DNA of 13,960 nt, taken from NCBI GenBank assembly GCA_037445915.1, contig JBBIJQ010000015.1, positions 23,638 to 37,597 of the forward strand, given 5' to 3'. Below the pieces are notes generated by a model. The model saw nothing but the letters and a program-made list of their open reading frames with translations. It was not told where the DNA came from and made no database searches. The stretch is from Planctomycetales bacterium. Its GTDB lineage: Bacteria; 4484-113. How positions within the stretch are numbered: the stretch's first letter is position 1; each line of letters begins with the position of its first letter. Below, piece after piece: positions 6,743 through 11,917 of this stretch. Position numbers and translations under genes: made by a program.

Positions 6743-6768
6743 TGGTATAATCTATACGATTTCGGGGG
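6743..6768 (+). promoter_or_regulatory. Extended -10 (TGGTATAAT) and RBS (GGGGG) of the large lipoprotein
   Basis: TGGTATAAT at 6743-6751; GGGGG at 6764-6768, 6 nt before ATG 6775. Confidence 0.65.
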
Positions 6769-6774
6769 TAACCT

Positions 6775-9700
6775 ATGAACTGCAACTGGGCATGGAAATC
6801 TTGTTTTCTTATTATCGTGCTGTTCCTCGCCACCGCCTGTGGGGGCCAGCGCTCTTCCGTTTCTTCCGCCGCAATCCTTCGTTCGGGGACGCTTGGACAG
6901 GAGACTCCTGAACCGCCCCTTTTGCGAGACGAGCAATCAGCCTACGATCCGGCTAAAGCAATCAATCGCTCCGGGTTTTCGCTGTTTGTGCTAGACCGAT
7001 GGGGCGAAATAGCTCCGGGCGACCGGAAGAACTACGACATGACCATACGGACGTTGATGAACGGCGATACGTTTGTCTCGGTATACGCCGTGGGGCTTGC
7101 CGATTCTGCGGGCAGTTTTTTCATCCTCAAGTACAACCCGGATGAGTGGCGTGTCCGTGAAACGCTTCCTGGCAGCTTCTACGGCGGCGCGTCCAAAAGC
7201 ATCTTCATCTCCGTGGACAAGTTCGCAGGTAGCCTCCCATTCGGGCTTGCGCGCGTTCGCCCACAGGATAATGGAGTGGTCTCCGGCGACGGCCTCATCG
7301 CGGAAATCTCCTTCATGCCTGGCCGCGCAACAGGCAGCCGCACGACAAGCGCAACAGTCAAGGAAAGCTCGCTAATCCTTACTCGGTATGATGTGCAGCC
7401 GTTTGAAGGGCTGGCAGAGGTGGCTTGGGCAGACCAGATGCGCGGCGACTACGACAACACCGGCAAGGTTACTGTCGCCGATGTCACGCCGCTAGCAATG
7501 TTCTTTGGGGGCATCATAGGAGACGGCATAAGCAACGAAACCGCCGAGCTTTTTGTGGACACGGCCGGCAACGGCGACGACGTCATCAGCATTGCCGACA
7601 TCACTCCAATCGCGATGAATTACGGCAGCACTATTGACGGCTATAACATCTACCGCAGCGTTGAAGGGCGCCCCGATATTCCCGAAAAGAAGCTGGTAAA
7701 CCTTGTGACTTCCGGCGCCCTACTGAGCATTGACCGTTACGTGGCTGAGCAGTTCCTGCCCGCAAACTACGCTTACGTAGACGCAACGCTGATGGACGAC
7801 TTCACCAGCCCCAGCACAACCTTCATATACCGCATCGTCCCTGTTGGCGACGGTGGAGAAGCTTCTTATTCACACTCCAAATCAGTACTAGTCCAGGAAA
7901 CAGCCGACACGACGCCGCCTCGCGGCCCCGGCGCTCCATCCAACCCTTATATCGGATTGACGGCTGTGGATGCCGGCAACTCCCGAGCGAAAATTTCCTA
8001 CCGGCGCAATGCCGTGGACAACGTCTCGCCCGCCGACAAGATTAAATACTTCCTCTACCTCGGCCCGGTTGGAACCAGCTACGGCATTGACTTAGACAAC
8101 TCCGCCATCGTTGAGGTAACGAATACTGCTCCGCCGTACATCTGGGACGGCCTTGCGAATGGCAGCACTTACGCAATTTACATCGCTGCTGAAGATGAGG
8201 CTGGCAACCGGACGAAGCCGGTCACCGGCGCGGTTAAGACTATTACGCCCAGCGACGGCGCGCGCAACGACTTCACGCCGCCGGTCTGGGATACTACGGT
8301 TGGCATCGTGACCGCTACGCAGGGGAACGGCGGTATCCGCGTCACTTTCGGCACCGCCCATGACGCCCAATCCCCTCCGGTTCGCTTCCGCGTATATTAC
8401 GCCGCGTCAACCGAGCTTCTCTTTGAGACAGCGCCCCGCTTGGAGGCCGACAGCTCGCCTTTCAGCATCACTGGCCTGCAAAACAACACTGCCTACACGG
8501 TAGCCGTGCGCGCGATAGACTCGGCTGACCGCTACGACCCCCCTATCTCGCCTAACGAAGACGCCAACACGGTAACGTTCACCCGTACGCCAAATGCCGC
8601 TGCGGGGGATGTAACCCCGCCGGTTTGGGATACGACTACCGGCGTTGTTAAGGCAGTCCCCGGCGAGGGGAGCATTCGCGTGGAGTTTGGCACTGCGACG
8701 GATGCGGCCAGCCCGCCTGTCATATACAACATCTACTACCAGCAAGGGCCGCAGGTGGACTTTACCTCGGCGACGCAGGCCATCATCGCCACGAGTAATT
8801 ACCCGCCGACCTTCATCTACGGCCTGACGGACGGCCAGGCATACACGGTCATCGTCCGGACGGCGGACGCAGTGGGCAACGAGGAGAAGAATGCGGTCGC
8901 GCTTACGACCAGGCCTGACATCGGCTTGGACAACGAGCCGCCGACCTGGGATACGACAATCGGCGCCCAATACGCATCTTACGGCAACGGCTTGATAGAC
9001 GTGTCATGGAATAGCGCCACAGACGCAATGTCCCCGCCTGTGGGTTACCGCGTTTACTGGGAAGAGGGAGAAGGCGGCATAACCGACTACGCAGCCGCAA
9101 TTGCCAGTGGGCGAACTGCTACAACCACCGACCTTTACTACCGCATTGAGGGGCTAACGAATAACACAGCTTACAGCGTCGCAGTGCGCGCATTCGACTC
9201 CTGGGCTACGCCTAACGAGGACTACAACCTTGTGTTCCTCGTGGAAACGCCGCGCGGAGGCGTCGCTTACGACACTATATTGGTTGAAGACCACCCGACA
9301 AGCCCCATCCGTTATACGAGCACATCAGTCGCCCCTAACGGGACAATTGGCATCGCCTACACAGTAGCCAACGAGTTTCAGCCGGGCAGGTTCAGATACA
9401 GACTCCGCTATGCGCAAAGCGCAGACGGCGGGCGCACTTTCACTACTGAACTTGTAGCCGGCGACATGGCCAACTCGCGCGGGAAGATGCCTTCGCTGAA
9501 GTTTGATGCTGCGTCGGTGGCGCATATCGCCTTCATAAACAACACGCGCGAGTACGACACGAACCCTGATGTCCCATACACCCTCGTGGAGTATGTGAAC
9601 CGGGCAGGCGGCACTTGGTCTGCGCCTGAGCTAATTGACGGCGGCGATAATGACACCGTTTATCTCAACCCGAGCCTGGCTTTCAACTCAGCAGGAGTTC

Positions 9701-10446
9701 CTGCCGTGTCCTACAACGTTTGGCTGACCGCTGATAACGATAAGACAGGCCGGCTGTATTACGCCAGAAAAGATCCGGTCTGGTCGGTGGAAGAAGTAAA
9801 CGGCGTGCGCGCGGGCGGCGGCCCCGGCCAGGACGGGGCAACGACTCCGCTTTCATTCGGCGTTTTCAGGTTTGGCGGGCCTCCAATGGAAGTTCCGACC
9901 ATCGCCTTCTCCGACCCATCCAAGGCAGGCAATCTTTTCTGGACGCTGCGGCGCGGCGCAGGCGATTGGTATACCTTAAGCCTTGACGATGCTAGCTGGA
10001 TGACACACGTAGGCCTTTACATGTGGAAGGCGGATGTCGGCGGGGGCAACTTCATCTACTTACCCCGCATTTCCTACCGCTTTGAGACTGGCACGGCTCT
10101 TTACATAGCCAAGAGCTATGTTGAAGACAGCCAGCTAAAATGGTCGTTCACCCAGGCGGACTTTTCCAACGACCCGGGCACCGGCTTCTACTCCAATGTC
10201 GCAGTGGCATTTCAAGCGGGCTATGAGATGATATTCGCAACCTGCTGGGATATGAACCGCCAGAAAGGCAAACTCTGCATTGAGAACTTATTGGGCGGTG
10301 ATTACATGGTTTATGATGTCCCGCCTTACACCGCAGTTCGCTCTGGAGAGTACATCTCAATGGGCCTCCTGCGCGTAGGGGCGAATGACAAGGCCATCGT
10401 CTCGATGGTAGCCGACGCTAACCTGTATGTCTCGGTGATGAAATAG
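6775..10446 (+). CDS. Large multidomain surface lipoprotein: cohesin-like, dockerin-like, 4x FN3-like, Asp-box/beta-propeller-like C-terminus
   Basis: Lipobox-like LATA-C22-GG after a hydrophobic stretch. Cohesin-like segment F.LKYNP...SGDGLIAEISF. Duplicated Ca-loop/helix GDYDNTGKVTVADVTPLAMFFG and GNGDDVISIADITPIAMNYG. FN3-like GL.N(G/N)T.Y.V.VRA.D repeats. Asp-box SADGGRTF. Confidence 0.85.
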   Translation: MNCNWAWKSCFLIIVLFLATACGGQRSSVSSAAILRSGTLGQETPEPPLLRDEQSAYDPAKAINRSGFSLFVLDRWGEIAPGDRKNYDMTIRTLMNGDTFVSVYAVGLADSAGSFFILKYNPDEWRVRETLPGSFYGGASKSIFISVDKFAGSLPFGLARVRPQDNGVVSGDGLIAEISFMPGRATGSRTTSATVKESSLILTRYDVQPFEGLAEVAWADQMRGDYDNTGKVTVADVTPLAMFFGGIIGDGISNETAELFVDTAGNGDDVISIADITPIAMNYGSTIDGYNIYRSVEGRPDIPEKKLVNLVTSGALLSIDRYVAEQFLPANYAYVDATLMDDFTSPSTTFIYRIVPVGDGGEASYSHSKSVLVQETADTTPPRGPGAPSNPYIGLTAVDAGNSRAKISYRRNAVDNVSPADKIKYFLYLGPVGTSYGIDLDNSAIVEVTNTAPPYIWDGLANGSTYAIYIAAEDEAGNRTKPVTGAVKTITPSDGARNDFTPPVWDTTVGIVTATQGNGGIRVTFGTAHDAQSPPVRFRVYYAASTELLFETAPRLEADSSPFSITGLQNNTAYTVAVRAIDSADRYDPPISPNEDANTVTFTRTPNAAAGDVTPPVWDTTTGVVKAVPGEGSIRVEFGTATDAASPPVIYNIYYQQGPQVDFTSATQAIIATSNYPPTFIYGLTDGQAYTVIVRTADAVGNEEKNAVALTTRPDIGLDNEPPTWDTTIGAQYASYGNGLIDVSWNSATDAMSPPVGYRVYWEEGEGGITDYAAAIASGRTATTTDLYYRIEGLTNNTAYSVAVRAFDSWATPNEDYNLVFLVETPRGGVAYDTILVEDHPTSPIRYTSTSVAPNGTIGIAYTVANEFQPGRFRYRLRYAQSADGGRTFTTELVAGDMANSRGKMPSLKFDAASVAHIAFINNTREYDTNPDVPYTLVEYVNRAGGTWSAPELIDGGDNDTVYLNPSLAFNSAGVPAVSYNVWLTADNDKTGRLYYARKDPVWSVEEVNGVRAGGGPGQDGATTPLSFGVFRFGGPPMEVPTIAFSDPSKAGNLFWTLRRGAGDWYTLSLDDASWMTHVGLYMWKADVGGGNFIYLPRISYRFETGTALYIAKSYVEDSQLKWSFTQADFSNDPGTGFYSNVAVAFQAGYEMIFATCWDMNRQKGKLCIENLLGGDYMVYDVPPYTAVRSGEYISMGLLRVGANDKAIVSMVADANLYVSVMK
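7906..9252 (+). repeat. Four tandem ~107-121 aa FN3-like repeats within the lipoprotein
   Basis: Units start at 7906 (DTTPP), 8269 (DFTPPVWDTTVG), 8608 (DVTPPVWDTTTG) and 8929 (DNEPPTWDTTIG). Units 2-4 share A.DA.SPPV.(Y/F)..Y, GL......Y.V.VR..D and NE(D/E).N; unit 1 is more diverged. Confidence 0.85.
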
Positions 10447-10571: not shown

Positions 10572-10600
10572 GGAACAAAACCGCGCCGAACCGCGTCTAA
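10572..10600 (+). promoter_or_regulatory. ECF/sigmaE-type promoter GGAACAA-N16-GTCTAA
   Basis: GGAAC at 10572-10576 and GTCTAA at 10595-10600 match the established sigmaE-type consensus GGAACTT-N16-GTCnAA in sequence and spacing. Confidence 0.6.
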
Positions 10601-10604
10601 TCTA

Positions 10605-10695
10605 GTGAAGGGTGGATGAGCCTTCCCCGCTCACACCCTTTCCCATCCCCCCTAACTTGCCGGGGCCAGGAGCAAAAACCCCTGGCCCCTTTTTT
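10605..10695 (+). ncRNA. Candidate ~90-nt small RNA (C-rich loop hairpin, C-rich linker, terminator)
   Basis: Starts a few nt after the ECF -10. Hairpin GAAGGGTG-GA-TGAGC[CTTCCCC]GCTCA-CACCCTTT at 10607-10641, linker CCCATCCCCCCTAACTTGCC, then an intrinsic terminator. Confidence 0.55.
10662..10695 (+). terminator. Rho-independent terminator
   Basis: Perfect 9-bp stem GGGGCCAGG (10662-10670) / CCTGGCCCC (10681-10689) followed by T6. Confidence 0.85.
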
Positions 10696-10719
10696 CATTT
10701 TCCGATTTTTCCGGTTGCC

Positions 10720-10748
10720 TTGACAGGAAGCAGCTTTAGCCTTACCTT
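10720..10748 (+). promoter_or_regulatory. Sigma70-type promoter for the tRNA
   Basis: TTGACA (10720-10725), 17-nt spacer, TACCTT (10743-10748), 10 nt upstream of the tRNA. Confidence 0.7.
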
Positions 10749-10758
10749 GAAGCCGTGC

Positions 10759-10831
10759 GCACCAGTAGCTCAGTGGATAGAGCGTTGGCCTCCGAAGCCA
10801 AAGGCCGAAGGTTCAAATCCTTCCTGGTGTA
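10759..10831 (+). tRNA. tRNA-Arg(CCG), CCA not encoded
   Basis: Acceptor stem GCACCAG/CTGGTGT, D-arm GCTC-AGTGGATA-GAGC, anticodon arm TTGGC-CTCCGAA-GCCAA, T-arm GAAGG-TTCAAAT-CCTTC. Confidence 0.96.
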
Positions 10832-10900
10832 TTGCAGCCAACCCTCCGGCCATGCTTCAAAAAAGCGCACGCCTGAGATAACATTATTGCGGGAGCGAAA

Positions 10901-10984
10901 ATGAAAATCGTTAGGCTGTTTTTTACGCTTACTTTCACGATTACGGCTATCTTTGCTTTGACCGCGTCCTGCGGCGGTAGCTGA
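10901..10984 (+). CDS. 27-aa small ORF consisting of a lipoprotein signal peptide (MKIVRLFFTLTFTITAIFALTAS-CGGS)
   Basis: RBS GGGAG at 10891-10895, basic N-terminus, hydrophobic core, lipobox-like LTAS-C followed by GG, and tandem stops TGA TAG. Possible promoter TTCAAA(10856)-N17-TAACAT(10879). Could be a remnant of a longer gene. Confidence 0.55.
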   Translation: MKIVRLFFTLTFTITAIFALTASCGGS

Positions 10985-11058: not shown

Positions 11059-11679
11059 ATGGACACGATAAAGCAGCATATAATAGCCCCTGACGAGGAG
11101 TTGATGGAGCTTGCCGCGAATGGGCAGCTTTCGGCCTTTGACGAGTTAAATAAGCGCTACCAGTCCCGCATTTATAACTTTATCAAAAAACAGGTTGGAA
11201 CCCAGGAAACTGCGGAAGACCTGGCACAAGAAGTATTTCTTCGCCTGTTCAAGTCCCTCAAGAGCTACGATCCGGAACGCAAGTTTTCCTCCTACATCTA
11301 CAAAATCGCAGTAAACGAAATCCGCCGCTATTACCAAAAACAGGCCGGCTCGCAAAGCTATTCCCTGAGTGATCCGGTATTAGATAGTGAGGACGGGCGA
11401 GAGCGCGTTGATATCCTCCCCGGCGACTCCGGGCCTGATCTAATAGTTATTAAGATGCTCACCGGAGAGGCTTTGCGCAAGCTGATAGACCGGCTGCCTC
11501 CGGAACAAAAAATTGTCGTCTTCCTTAAAGTTTATGAGCAGATGACCTTTGATGAAATCGCCAAGGCGATGGACCGGCCGCTTTCAACCGTCCTTTCGCG
11601 AATGCGTTACGCGCTCCACAAACTACGCAAATGGATTACTGAGGAAGGAATTGCGTCAGATGAACTGCTCGGAAATTAG
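11059..11679 (+). CDS. ECF (sigma-70 family, RpoE/SigW-like) RNA polymerase sigma factor
   Basis: Region 2 motifs AFDEL..RY, AEDLAQEVFLRLF and FSSYIYKIAVN; region 4 LPPEQK.V..LK...MTFDEIA..M..PLSTV.SRM.YA; 206 aa. Confidence 0.93.
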   Translation: MDTIKQHIIAPDEELMELAANGQLSAFDELNKRYQSRIYNFIKKQVGTQETAEDLAQEVFLRLFKSLKSYDPERKFSSYIYKIAVNEIRRYYQKQAGSQSYSLSDPVLDSEDGRERVDILPGDSGPDLIVIKMLTGEALRKLIDRLPPEQKIVVFLKVYEQMTFDEIAKAMDRPLSTVLSRMRYALHKLRKWITEEGIASDELLGN

Positions 11680-11917
11680 GCTCCATATCCTGCGCTACCT
11701 GTGCGGAGAGTTGACGATAGTAGAGCTTGCGCAACTCCGCGCGCAGGTTGACGACTGCACAGGCTGCAATGAGTGCGAGAAAGAGCGCGAAGCTATGGAG
11801 ATGATACTCTCCCGCCTCAACACCGCTTACGAAAACGAGCCGGTGCCCGCCAGCCTGCGCGAGCGCATTTTCGCTAAACTTGCCGAGGTCCGCGGCGAAG
11901 GCGTGGACGAAAGCTAG
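11660..11917 (+). CDS. Soluble zinc-finger (zf-HC2/ZAS-like) anti-sigma factor, 85 aa; start ATG 11660
   Basis: MNCSEIR..I..YL.GEL...E...L..Q...CxxC and P.VPASLRERI match the RsrA/RsiW-type anti-sigma domain pattern. It overlaps the sigma stop by 20 bp, has GAGGAAGGA upstream and has no transmembrane segment. Confidence 0.8.
   Translation: MNCSEIRLHILRYLCGELTIVELAQLRAQVDDCTGCNECEKEREAMEMILSRLNTAYENEPVPASLRERIFAKLAEVRGEGVDES

Follow-up and report, generated by a model that had tools for sequence, protein, structure and literature searches.

The locus considered here raises the question of whether the short interval between a large lipoprotein gene and a tRNA-Arg(CCG) gene encodes an independent small RNA and, if so, which sigma factor transcribes it and on what it acts. 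The window (the whole stretch of DNA analysed, 13,960 nucleotides from a Planctomycetales bacterium) also contains an ECF sigma factor gene and a gene for a small anti-sigma factor downstream of the tRNA gene. A sequence-only reading of the window had pointed out a candidate ECF-dependent small RNA in this interval, here called sRNA-1. The interpretation that we favour, with a probability of roughly 0.6, is that sRNA-1 is a trans-acting RNA of about 90 nt that belongs to an ECF regulon and acts through a C-rich seed.

Anatomy of the sRNA-1 locus

The GGAACAA-N16-GTCTAA promoter motif, the bulged hairpin, the linker and the 9-bp terminator with U6 that the sequence-only reading had described were all found at the positions given for them (Table 1). 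The spacer between GGAAC and GTCTAA is 18 nt (equal to GGAACAA-N16-GTCTAA) and GTCTAA ends 6 nt 5' of the hairpin, so placed that transcription from this ECF-type promoter would start near 10606 and would end at the intrinsic terminator at 10695. Folding of positions 10603-10696 with RNAfold gave an outer stem of 8 bp (10607-10614/10634-10641), a GA bulge (10615-10616) and an inner stem of 5 bp (10617-10621/10629-10633) closed by the loop CUUCCCC (10622-10628), followed by an unpaired, C-rich linker (10642-10661), the terminator stem (10662-10670/10681-10689) and the U6 tract (10690-10695). The minimum free energy of this segment was -37.9 kcal/mol (z = -3.76) and none of 200 shuffled sequences was as stable. 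A simple terminator scan did not report the sRNA-1 terminator because the loop exceeds the 8-nt limit of that scan.

Table 1. Features of the window and two further small RNA candidates in the same genome (G000).
Feature	Position	Strand	Basis or remark
Lipoprotein gene, 1223 aa, FN3 + Ig-like domains	6745-10446	+	
-35 element GGAAC (GGAACAA), ECF-type	10572-10576	+	direct sequence reading
-10 element GTCTAA	10595-10600	+	direct sequence reading
sRNA-1 transcript, predicted, ~90 nt	10606-10695	+	start from promoter geometry
5' hairpin: 13 bp, GA bulge, loop CUUCCCC	10607-10641	+	RNAfold
Invariant block CCAUCCCCCCUAACUUG, presumed seed	10643-10659	+	recurrence across 34 distinct loci
Intrinsic terminator: 9-bp G+C stem, 10-nt loop, U6	10662-10695	+	RNAfold
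tRNA-Arg(CCG), outside sRNA-1	10759-10831	+	Rfam; own promoter TTGACA-N17-TACCTT 10720-10748
Neighbouring ECF sigma, outside sRNA-1	11059-11679	+	
Anti-sigma of neighbouring ECF, 85 aa, RsrA-like soluble	11660-11917	+	best NCBIfam match
sRNA-2 candidate	G000 C49:7192-7288	-	GGAAC-N17-GTCTAA promoter, single-stranded CCUAACUUCCUUUCUGG, terminator
sRNA-3 candidate	G000 C19:2468-2584	-	GGAAC-N17-GTCTAA promoter, GACAGC..GCUGUC hairpin, terminator

When the window was searched with Rfam at the gathering score, the tRNA-Arg(CCG) was the only hit and no family was assigned to sRNA-1, in agreement with the earlier remark that the RNA was not recognisable as a known one. Lowering the threshold to E≤10 for sRNA-1 returned only noise, such as mmgR with 14.9 bits (gathering score 41) and BjrC80 with 11.9 bits (gathering score 80).

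A small-protein gene at this place would have to use the only open reading frame that runs across the element, an 89-aa frame with a GTG start (10612-10881). This frame continues through the tRNA gene, which bears out the earlier statement that no credible ORF is present; the clades described below have no start codon or frame in common, and their C run differs by single bases (6, 7 or 8). We consider a coding function of the element extremely improbable.

Conservation and covariation in relatives

A BLAST search of the element against 40 relatives recovered its second half, and in some cases the whole of it, in seven members of the window's family and one genome of the sister family. At these loci the promoter motif, hairpin, linker and terminator occur together, behind differing upstream genes. 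Scanning one genome per species with the 17-nt core gave 20 loci, five of which (L050, L054, L059, L060 and L063) come from unrelated taxa, have no flanking hairpins and were set aside as chance matches; of the remaining 15, 14 have the full terminator context and one (L046) is ambiguous. The records of the loci are labelled 'Planctomycetales bacterium', 'UBP7' or 'bacterium'. The same core found 16 loci in metagenomes, all with the full architecture.

A covariance model (R1) was built from 15 homologue sequences. It detected sRNA-1 in 18 of the 19 genomes of the window's order (E≤0.01), the sole miss being a genome that is 90% complete (G004). Applied to the whole phylum at E≤0.001, the model found no match in the five genomes of the phylum's other families; at this threshold two further genomes of the order (G001 and G007) were also lost, which leaves 16 of 24 genomes. 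There is one copy of sRNA-1 per genome, except in one complete genome of genus g7, where two copies lie 1.4 kb apart (L143/L156). The 5' half of the second copy is unrelated.

The block CCAUCCCCCCUAACUUG is unchanged in all 34 distinct loci, a count to be read with the fact that the pattern itself was used for collecting loci; the same block is seen in the matches obtained by BLAST and R1, which are the fairer gauge of invariance. The C run is 7-8 long in three loci of the window's family. The check for conservation in relatives that had been called for thus came out positively, with promoter, seed and terminator recurring together, and judged from this conservation the element is more than a product of chance. 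We are highly confident that sRNA-1 is a genuine sRNA gene in its own right. It represents a family that is new but of a kind already known, and its range is a single order within an uncultivated candidate phylum.

The homologues fall into three clades. Clade A is the window's family, with the GGAACAA..GTCTAA promoter and the long bulged 5' hairpin. Clade B comprises much of the sister family together with most of the metagenome loci and has the promoter GCGAACA-N17-CGTCTA and a GUUACG..CGUAAC hairpin. Genus g7 makes up clade C, with a sigma-70-like TTGTAG-N17-TATGAC promoter (at loci L143/L156, L045, L052, L053, L145 and L146) and a UGUGU..ACACA hairpin. The 5' hairpin is found at the same place in all homologues and its sequence is swapped between clades.

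Covariation was evaluated separately for clades B/C and clade A. In the clade B/C alignment (15 sequences) 98.6% of the cells pair, 6 of the 14 pairs change on both sides and none of 500 shuffles matched the covariation score, while slid controls, in which the partner was shifted by one to three columns, gave only 32-48% pairing. The compensatory changes are distributed over both helices: three of the six pairs of the 5' hairpin change on both sides, as do three of the eight terminator pairs, which are 100% paired over the 15 sequences. In clade A covariation was at chance level (0.091 versus 0.084, equalled by 92 of 500 shuffles); the helices themselves are conserved there, and the MAFFT alignment of this clade is partly misregistered, including the window's own row. 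Covariation, for which a test had been suggested earlier, is thus seen in both helices of clades B/C and does not exceed chance in the window's own clade.

The segment CCCCCCUAAC was unpaired in the minimum free energy fold of all 27 homologues folded. In clade A it is part of a free linker, and in clades B/C a 5-bp stem holds it in a loop of 12 nt; the helix that closes this loop (UUACC/GGUAG) is invariant in clades B/C, is absent from clade A and is uninformative either way. As regards the C-rich loops emphasised earlier, the linker proved invariant and the hairpin loop is C-rich solely in the window's family. The layout that we propose for sRNA-1 is a 5' hairpin that varies by clade and would serve to stabilise the RNA, an always-unpaired CCAUCCCCCCUAACUUG and a terminator hairpin. 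The earlier description of the element as a separate non-coding transcription unit of ~90 nt, which has a promoter of the ECF type and exposes a C-rich segment, is supported.

The distribution of the homologues also bears on whether the element could act in cis, either as the 3' UTR or terminator of the 1223-aa lipoprotein gene or as the leader of a tRNA-Arg/ECF operon. The distances in the window would allow this, as the element begins 126 nt past the lipoprotein stop codon (10446) and ends 63 nt ahead of the tRNA. However, the upstream gene varies by genus and promoter, RNA and terminator move as one. On the downstream side, a conserved tRNA promoter (TTGACA-N17-TAnCTT) sits 3' of the sRNA-1 terminator, whose 9-bp G+C stem and U6 would block read-through, and no tRNA was found within ~1.5 kb in the nine loci of the sister family (f2) that were examined or in G003; adjacency to the tRNA is limited to part of the window's family. 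A cis-acting element is in our estimate very improbable.

The proposed sigma factor and its regulon

An ECF-type motif, GAAC-N16-19-GTC, is suitably placed for sRNA-1 in 26 of 34 distinct loci (25 with the motif 25-50 nt 5' of the invariant block, and L069 just beyond this range). GGAAC is kept in seven of the eight genomes of the window's family that have sRNA-1, and a genome of the window's own genus (G001) has the degenerate version GAAAC-N19-GTCCGA. The same components, i.e. GGAAC or GAAC, (C)GTC and a spacer of 16-19 nt, are shared with RpoE-like autoregulated ECF promoters (-35 element GGAACTT, 'AAC ... CGT'). As in those systems, the motif also heads an ECF/anti-sigma operon here; what differs from the classical ECF promoters is that the motif would drive a non-coding RNA and that the wiring appears to differ by clade.

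Nine proteins of the sigma-70 family, six of them ECF-like, are encoded in the genome from which the window comes (G000). An ECF gene unlinked to sRNA-1 (contig C51, 9191-9799), directly followed by the gene for a 313-aa zf-HC2 anti-sigma, has orthologues in all 19 genomes of the order. GGAAC-N16-18-GTC is found just 5' of the start in each of them, and such a motif before the gene of the ECF itself is typical of ECFs that activate their own transcription (PMC8103513). A promoter matrix was made from 16 unique promoters of these C51-type ECF genes only and scanned on both strands of G000. The ECF gene itself ranked 1, the sRNA-2 candidate 3, the sRNA-3 candidate 5 and sRNA-1 10, and ranks 4 and 6 are promoters of protein genes. 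Other strong matches in G000 precede genes whose products are a Big_1/invasin-like protein, a subtilase of family S8 that carries Ig-like domains, a SpoU methylase and proteins to which Pfam assigns no family.

A second ECF (G000 C10:8436-9053, present in 17 of the 19 genomes) has a closely similar promoter of its own, TGAACA-N16-18-CGTC. When the two matrices were compared, the C51-type matrix scored higher for all seven distinct clade A promoters (20.9 versus 14.3 bits for the window) and the C10-type matrix for 11 of the 12 clade B promoters. Cross-recognition of the sRNA-1 promoter by the C10-type ECF is possible on these figures. The sigma-70-like promoter of genus g7 implies that ECF control of sRNA-1 is not universal, and the comparison of the clades suggests that control of sRNA-1 has shifted from one sigma factor to another in the course of evolution.

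The sequence-only reading had named the neighbouring ECF as the cognate sigma factor, which after release from the adjacent small anti-sigma would transcribe sRNA-1. The genes are close together in the window and the order sRNA - tRNA - ECF is repeated in G002. Moreover, NCBIfam placed none of the three ECFs (C51-type, C10-type and the window neighbour) beyond the ECF superfamily, so that as generic members of it their specificity is unreadable from protein sequence. Nevertheless, inspection by eye revealed no GGAAC..GTCTAA 5' of this ECF gene or of the five orthologues examined (L090-L094); instead, a sigma-70-like -10 element (TAGAAT, TAAAAT or TAACAT) precedes the gene, and in four of the six loci (the window, L091, L093 and L094) there is a tiny lipoprotein-like upstream ORF. 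The linkage is also poor: sRNA-1 and the neighbouring ECF are on separate contigs in G005 and G007, and G004 retains the tRNA and the ECF while sRNA-1 was not detected there. In 19 of 19 genomes the motif marks the autoregulated promoter of a different ECF, the C51-type. The earlier assignment is not supported, and we regard transcription of sRNA-1 by its neighbour as quite improbable.

The promoter matches make it quite likely that an ECF sigma factor drives sRNA-1 in G000, and we lean towards the C51-type ECF as that factor. The sRNA-1 promoter would then most likely be part of the regulon of this unlinked, autoregulated ECF with its 313-aa zinc-finger anti-sigma, a regulon that would also include secreted or surface proteins and the two further small RNA candidates, and release of the sigma factor would lead to accumulation of sRNA-1.

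For both of these candidates, promoter and terminator are conserved in other genera of the family. sRNA-2 has a conserved single-stranded CCU(A/G)ACUUCCUUUCUGG (loci L109-L114 and L117) and is kept in G001, G002 (two copies), G005, G006 and G008. In sRNA-3 (loci L118-L124) AAUCCCCCAUACCCCCC runs into the terminator and there is an AAU(U)CCCCCUAUACCCCCC motif; the element immediately precedes the -10 sequence of a gene for a 590-aa protein. BLAST found sRNA-3 in 7 of the 19 genomes of the order, being kept in six relatives within the family, and found none in the sister family.

The C51-type ECF genes (L080-L088 and L159-L168) have in addition an extended -10-like TGnTAnAAT directly 5' of the ECF -35 element, and in the window's family their ECF -10 element is ~8-12 nt away from the start codon. 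Two promoters may thus be stacked ahead of these genes, and the mRNAs may be almost leaderless.

Proposed mode of action and comparison with known small RNAs

According to our proposal, the C6-centred seed would need no Hfq to pair with short segments of mRNAs that are rich in G, for the most part in ribosome-binding sites, where the C6 run would out-pair the ribosomal CCUCC on G runs and in this way reduce translation of the mRNAs concerned. Hfq (PF17209) was not detected in any of five genomes searched, one of them complete, and control genomes were positive. This negative search, together with a C-rich seed, fits the chaperone-independent C-rich sRNAs of Gram-positive bacteria.

Candidate targets were sought from crude gene starts in G000 (90% complete), and the choice of starts favoured G-rich Shine-Dalgarno sequences. 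Complements of 7-mers of AUCCCCCCUAAC were present at -30 to -1 of 25 among 1529 crude starts, compared to 3-12 in five control windows, an enrichment that is partly circular because start calling rewarded Shine-Dalgarno sequences rich in G, which are G-rich anyway. A duplex scan of 1520 crude starts with 40 shuffled seeds as controls gave no enrichment, either in the number of sites at or below -14 kcal/mol (488 versus 585 ± 105) or in the best energy (-30.1 versus -28.9 ± 2.6). The lipoprotein ribosome-binding site at 6761-6770, put forward earlier as one possible target, offers only five G:C pairs at -12.8 kcal/mol and ranked 624 of 1520, and we no longer count it among the candidates.

A G6 run at -20 to -1 was found for 18 of the 1520 crude starts in G000. 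Pfam descriptions of 15 of these 18 genes are mixed (NuoF, NuoK, NuoB, H+-PPase, LeuRS, L20 and regulators), and with NuoM the set includes four genes of NADH dehydrogenase subunit families, which is suggestive of membrane energy complexes as possible targets. Overall we hold the chances to be evenly balanced that sRNA-1 acts by pairing with G-rich mRNA sites.

Several individual candidates were dropped. The sites at ComEC (rank 1), MreC (rank 2) and NuoM (rank 6) are not conserved in relatives: the first is missing even within the same genus, the second depends on a start call in G000 that is probably wrong, and at the third the G6 run is lost in other genera. Neither the 20-mer nor parts of it had a complement in G000 except in the gene itself, as would be needed for a long antisense target, and complements of the 16-mer with up to three mismatches were in five genomes not more numerous than those of a control read backwards.

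The lack of a conserved mRNA site in these searches would also be expected if sRNA-1 were a decoy or sponge for a protein or other abundant partner that binds the C-rich block. The 17-nt pattern is fixed in 34 distinct loci despite changing promoter type and 5' hairpin, and clades B/C display the block in a 12-nt loop that tops a 5-bp stem. On the other hand, the search for binding proteins, which covered Hfq, yielded no candidate, and the search for mRNA sites was a crude one in a single 90%-complete genome. Invariance is likewise a property of the multi-target seeds of known sRNAs, e.g. RybB. A conserved seed-pairing domain is described in PMC6694218. We regard a decoy function as unlikely, yet as a rival to be taken seriously beside our working model of pairing with mRNA.

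Among known systems, the sigmaE-dependent sRNAs of enterobacteria and vibrios (MicA, RybB and MicL; VrrA and MicV) are likewise short, end in a terminator and have envelope-stress ECF promoters with a GGAAC -35 element. sRNA-1 has no likeness in sequence or structure to these sRNAs, and Rfam gave no match to their families, either at its gathering score or when the threshold was lowered to E≤10. sRNAs of the MicA/RybB type depend on Hfq, whereas in the host of sRNA-1 no Hfq gene was detected (five genomes). Furthermore, the seed of sRNA-1 is internal and centred on C6 and not 5'-terminal as in the sigmaE sRNAs, and its host belongs to an uncultivated candidate phylum, unlike theirs. In the enterobacterial sigmaE layout, several unrelated sRNAs within one ECF regulon, beside envelope proteins, form a repressing 'sRNA arm' (PMC8103513, PMC4102768 and PMC6694218). 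The first of these also lists as hallmarks of ECF systems AAC at -35 and CGT at -10, an anti-sigma gene transcribed together with the sigma gene, self-activation and the sRNA arm of RpoE.

With RsaE/RoxS, 6C and IsrR, sRNA-1 has the unpaired C-rich motif in common. There was no Rfam match of sRNA-1 to RsaE or 6C at E≤10, and of the two or more conserved, unpaired C-rich motifs that mark RNAs of this type it has one that is invariant, while its hairpin loop is C-rich only in the window's family. The ECF-type promoter is a feature of sRNA-1; RsaE/RoxS, 6C and IsrR are not known to be ECF-dependent. For these RNAs, Hfq-independent pairing of the unpaired C-rich motifs with G-rich ribosome-binding sites is assumed or has been demonstrated (PMC6486639, PMC5419742 and PMC9410917).

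A more far-reaching version of the proposal, which we find rather doubtful, is that a phylum without Hfq independently built a two-armed circuit resembling that of enterobacterial sigmaE, in which one autoregulated ECF controls surface or secreted proteins as well as three unrelated sRNAs. sRNA-1 would in that case be a selective mimic of the anti-Shine-Dalgarno sequence that prevails over the ribosome solely at ribosome-binding sites with G runs, and would have been passed from one ECF to a paralogue, and to the housekeeping sigma factor, with its 17-nt seed unchanged.

By sequence comparison alone it was possible to define an sRNA family in its promoter, seed and structure, to name a candidate sigma factor for it and to find two sibling RNA candidates of the same predicted regulon. 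To our knowledge, regulatory RNAs are almost unknown outside the cultivated model phyla. Literature searches on phylum UBP7 gave no sRNA paper among the matches listed, and searches on Planctomycetes, ECF and sRNA gave none on the lineage of sRNA-1 among the matches listed. If confirmed, the findings would make the ECF 'sRNA arm' a recurrent design without need for Hfq and would provide a clean case of a frozen sRNA seed under rewired transcriptional control. The practical value is modest: annotation gains one more covariance model, and a compact promoter/sigma pair becomes available for testing.

Some minor observations concern the genes around sRNA-1. The lipoprotein gene is preceded by a TATAAT box, ~25 nt 5' of its start, and has GGGGG as its Shine-Dalgarno sequence. 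The anti-sigma gene overlaps the 3' end of the neighbouring ECF gene by 20 nt, and the 85-aa product is rich in CxxC with a match to RsrA below the cut-off (38.5 versus 62.5 bits); a soluble protein of this kind suggests that the neighbouring ECF responds to a thiol or redox signal in the cytoplasm rather than to one from the envelope. In the interval between the tRNA and the ECF gene, a 27-codon ORF on the plus strand (10901-10984) encodes a signal peptide and a lipobox (LTASC) followed only by GGS. ORFs with a lipobox cysteine followed by 5-13 residues were also seen by eye 5' of the orthologous ECF genes at L091, L093 and L094. The 27-codon ORF might encode a leader peptide through which the sigma operon senses the export or maturation of lipoproteins.
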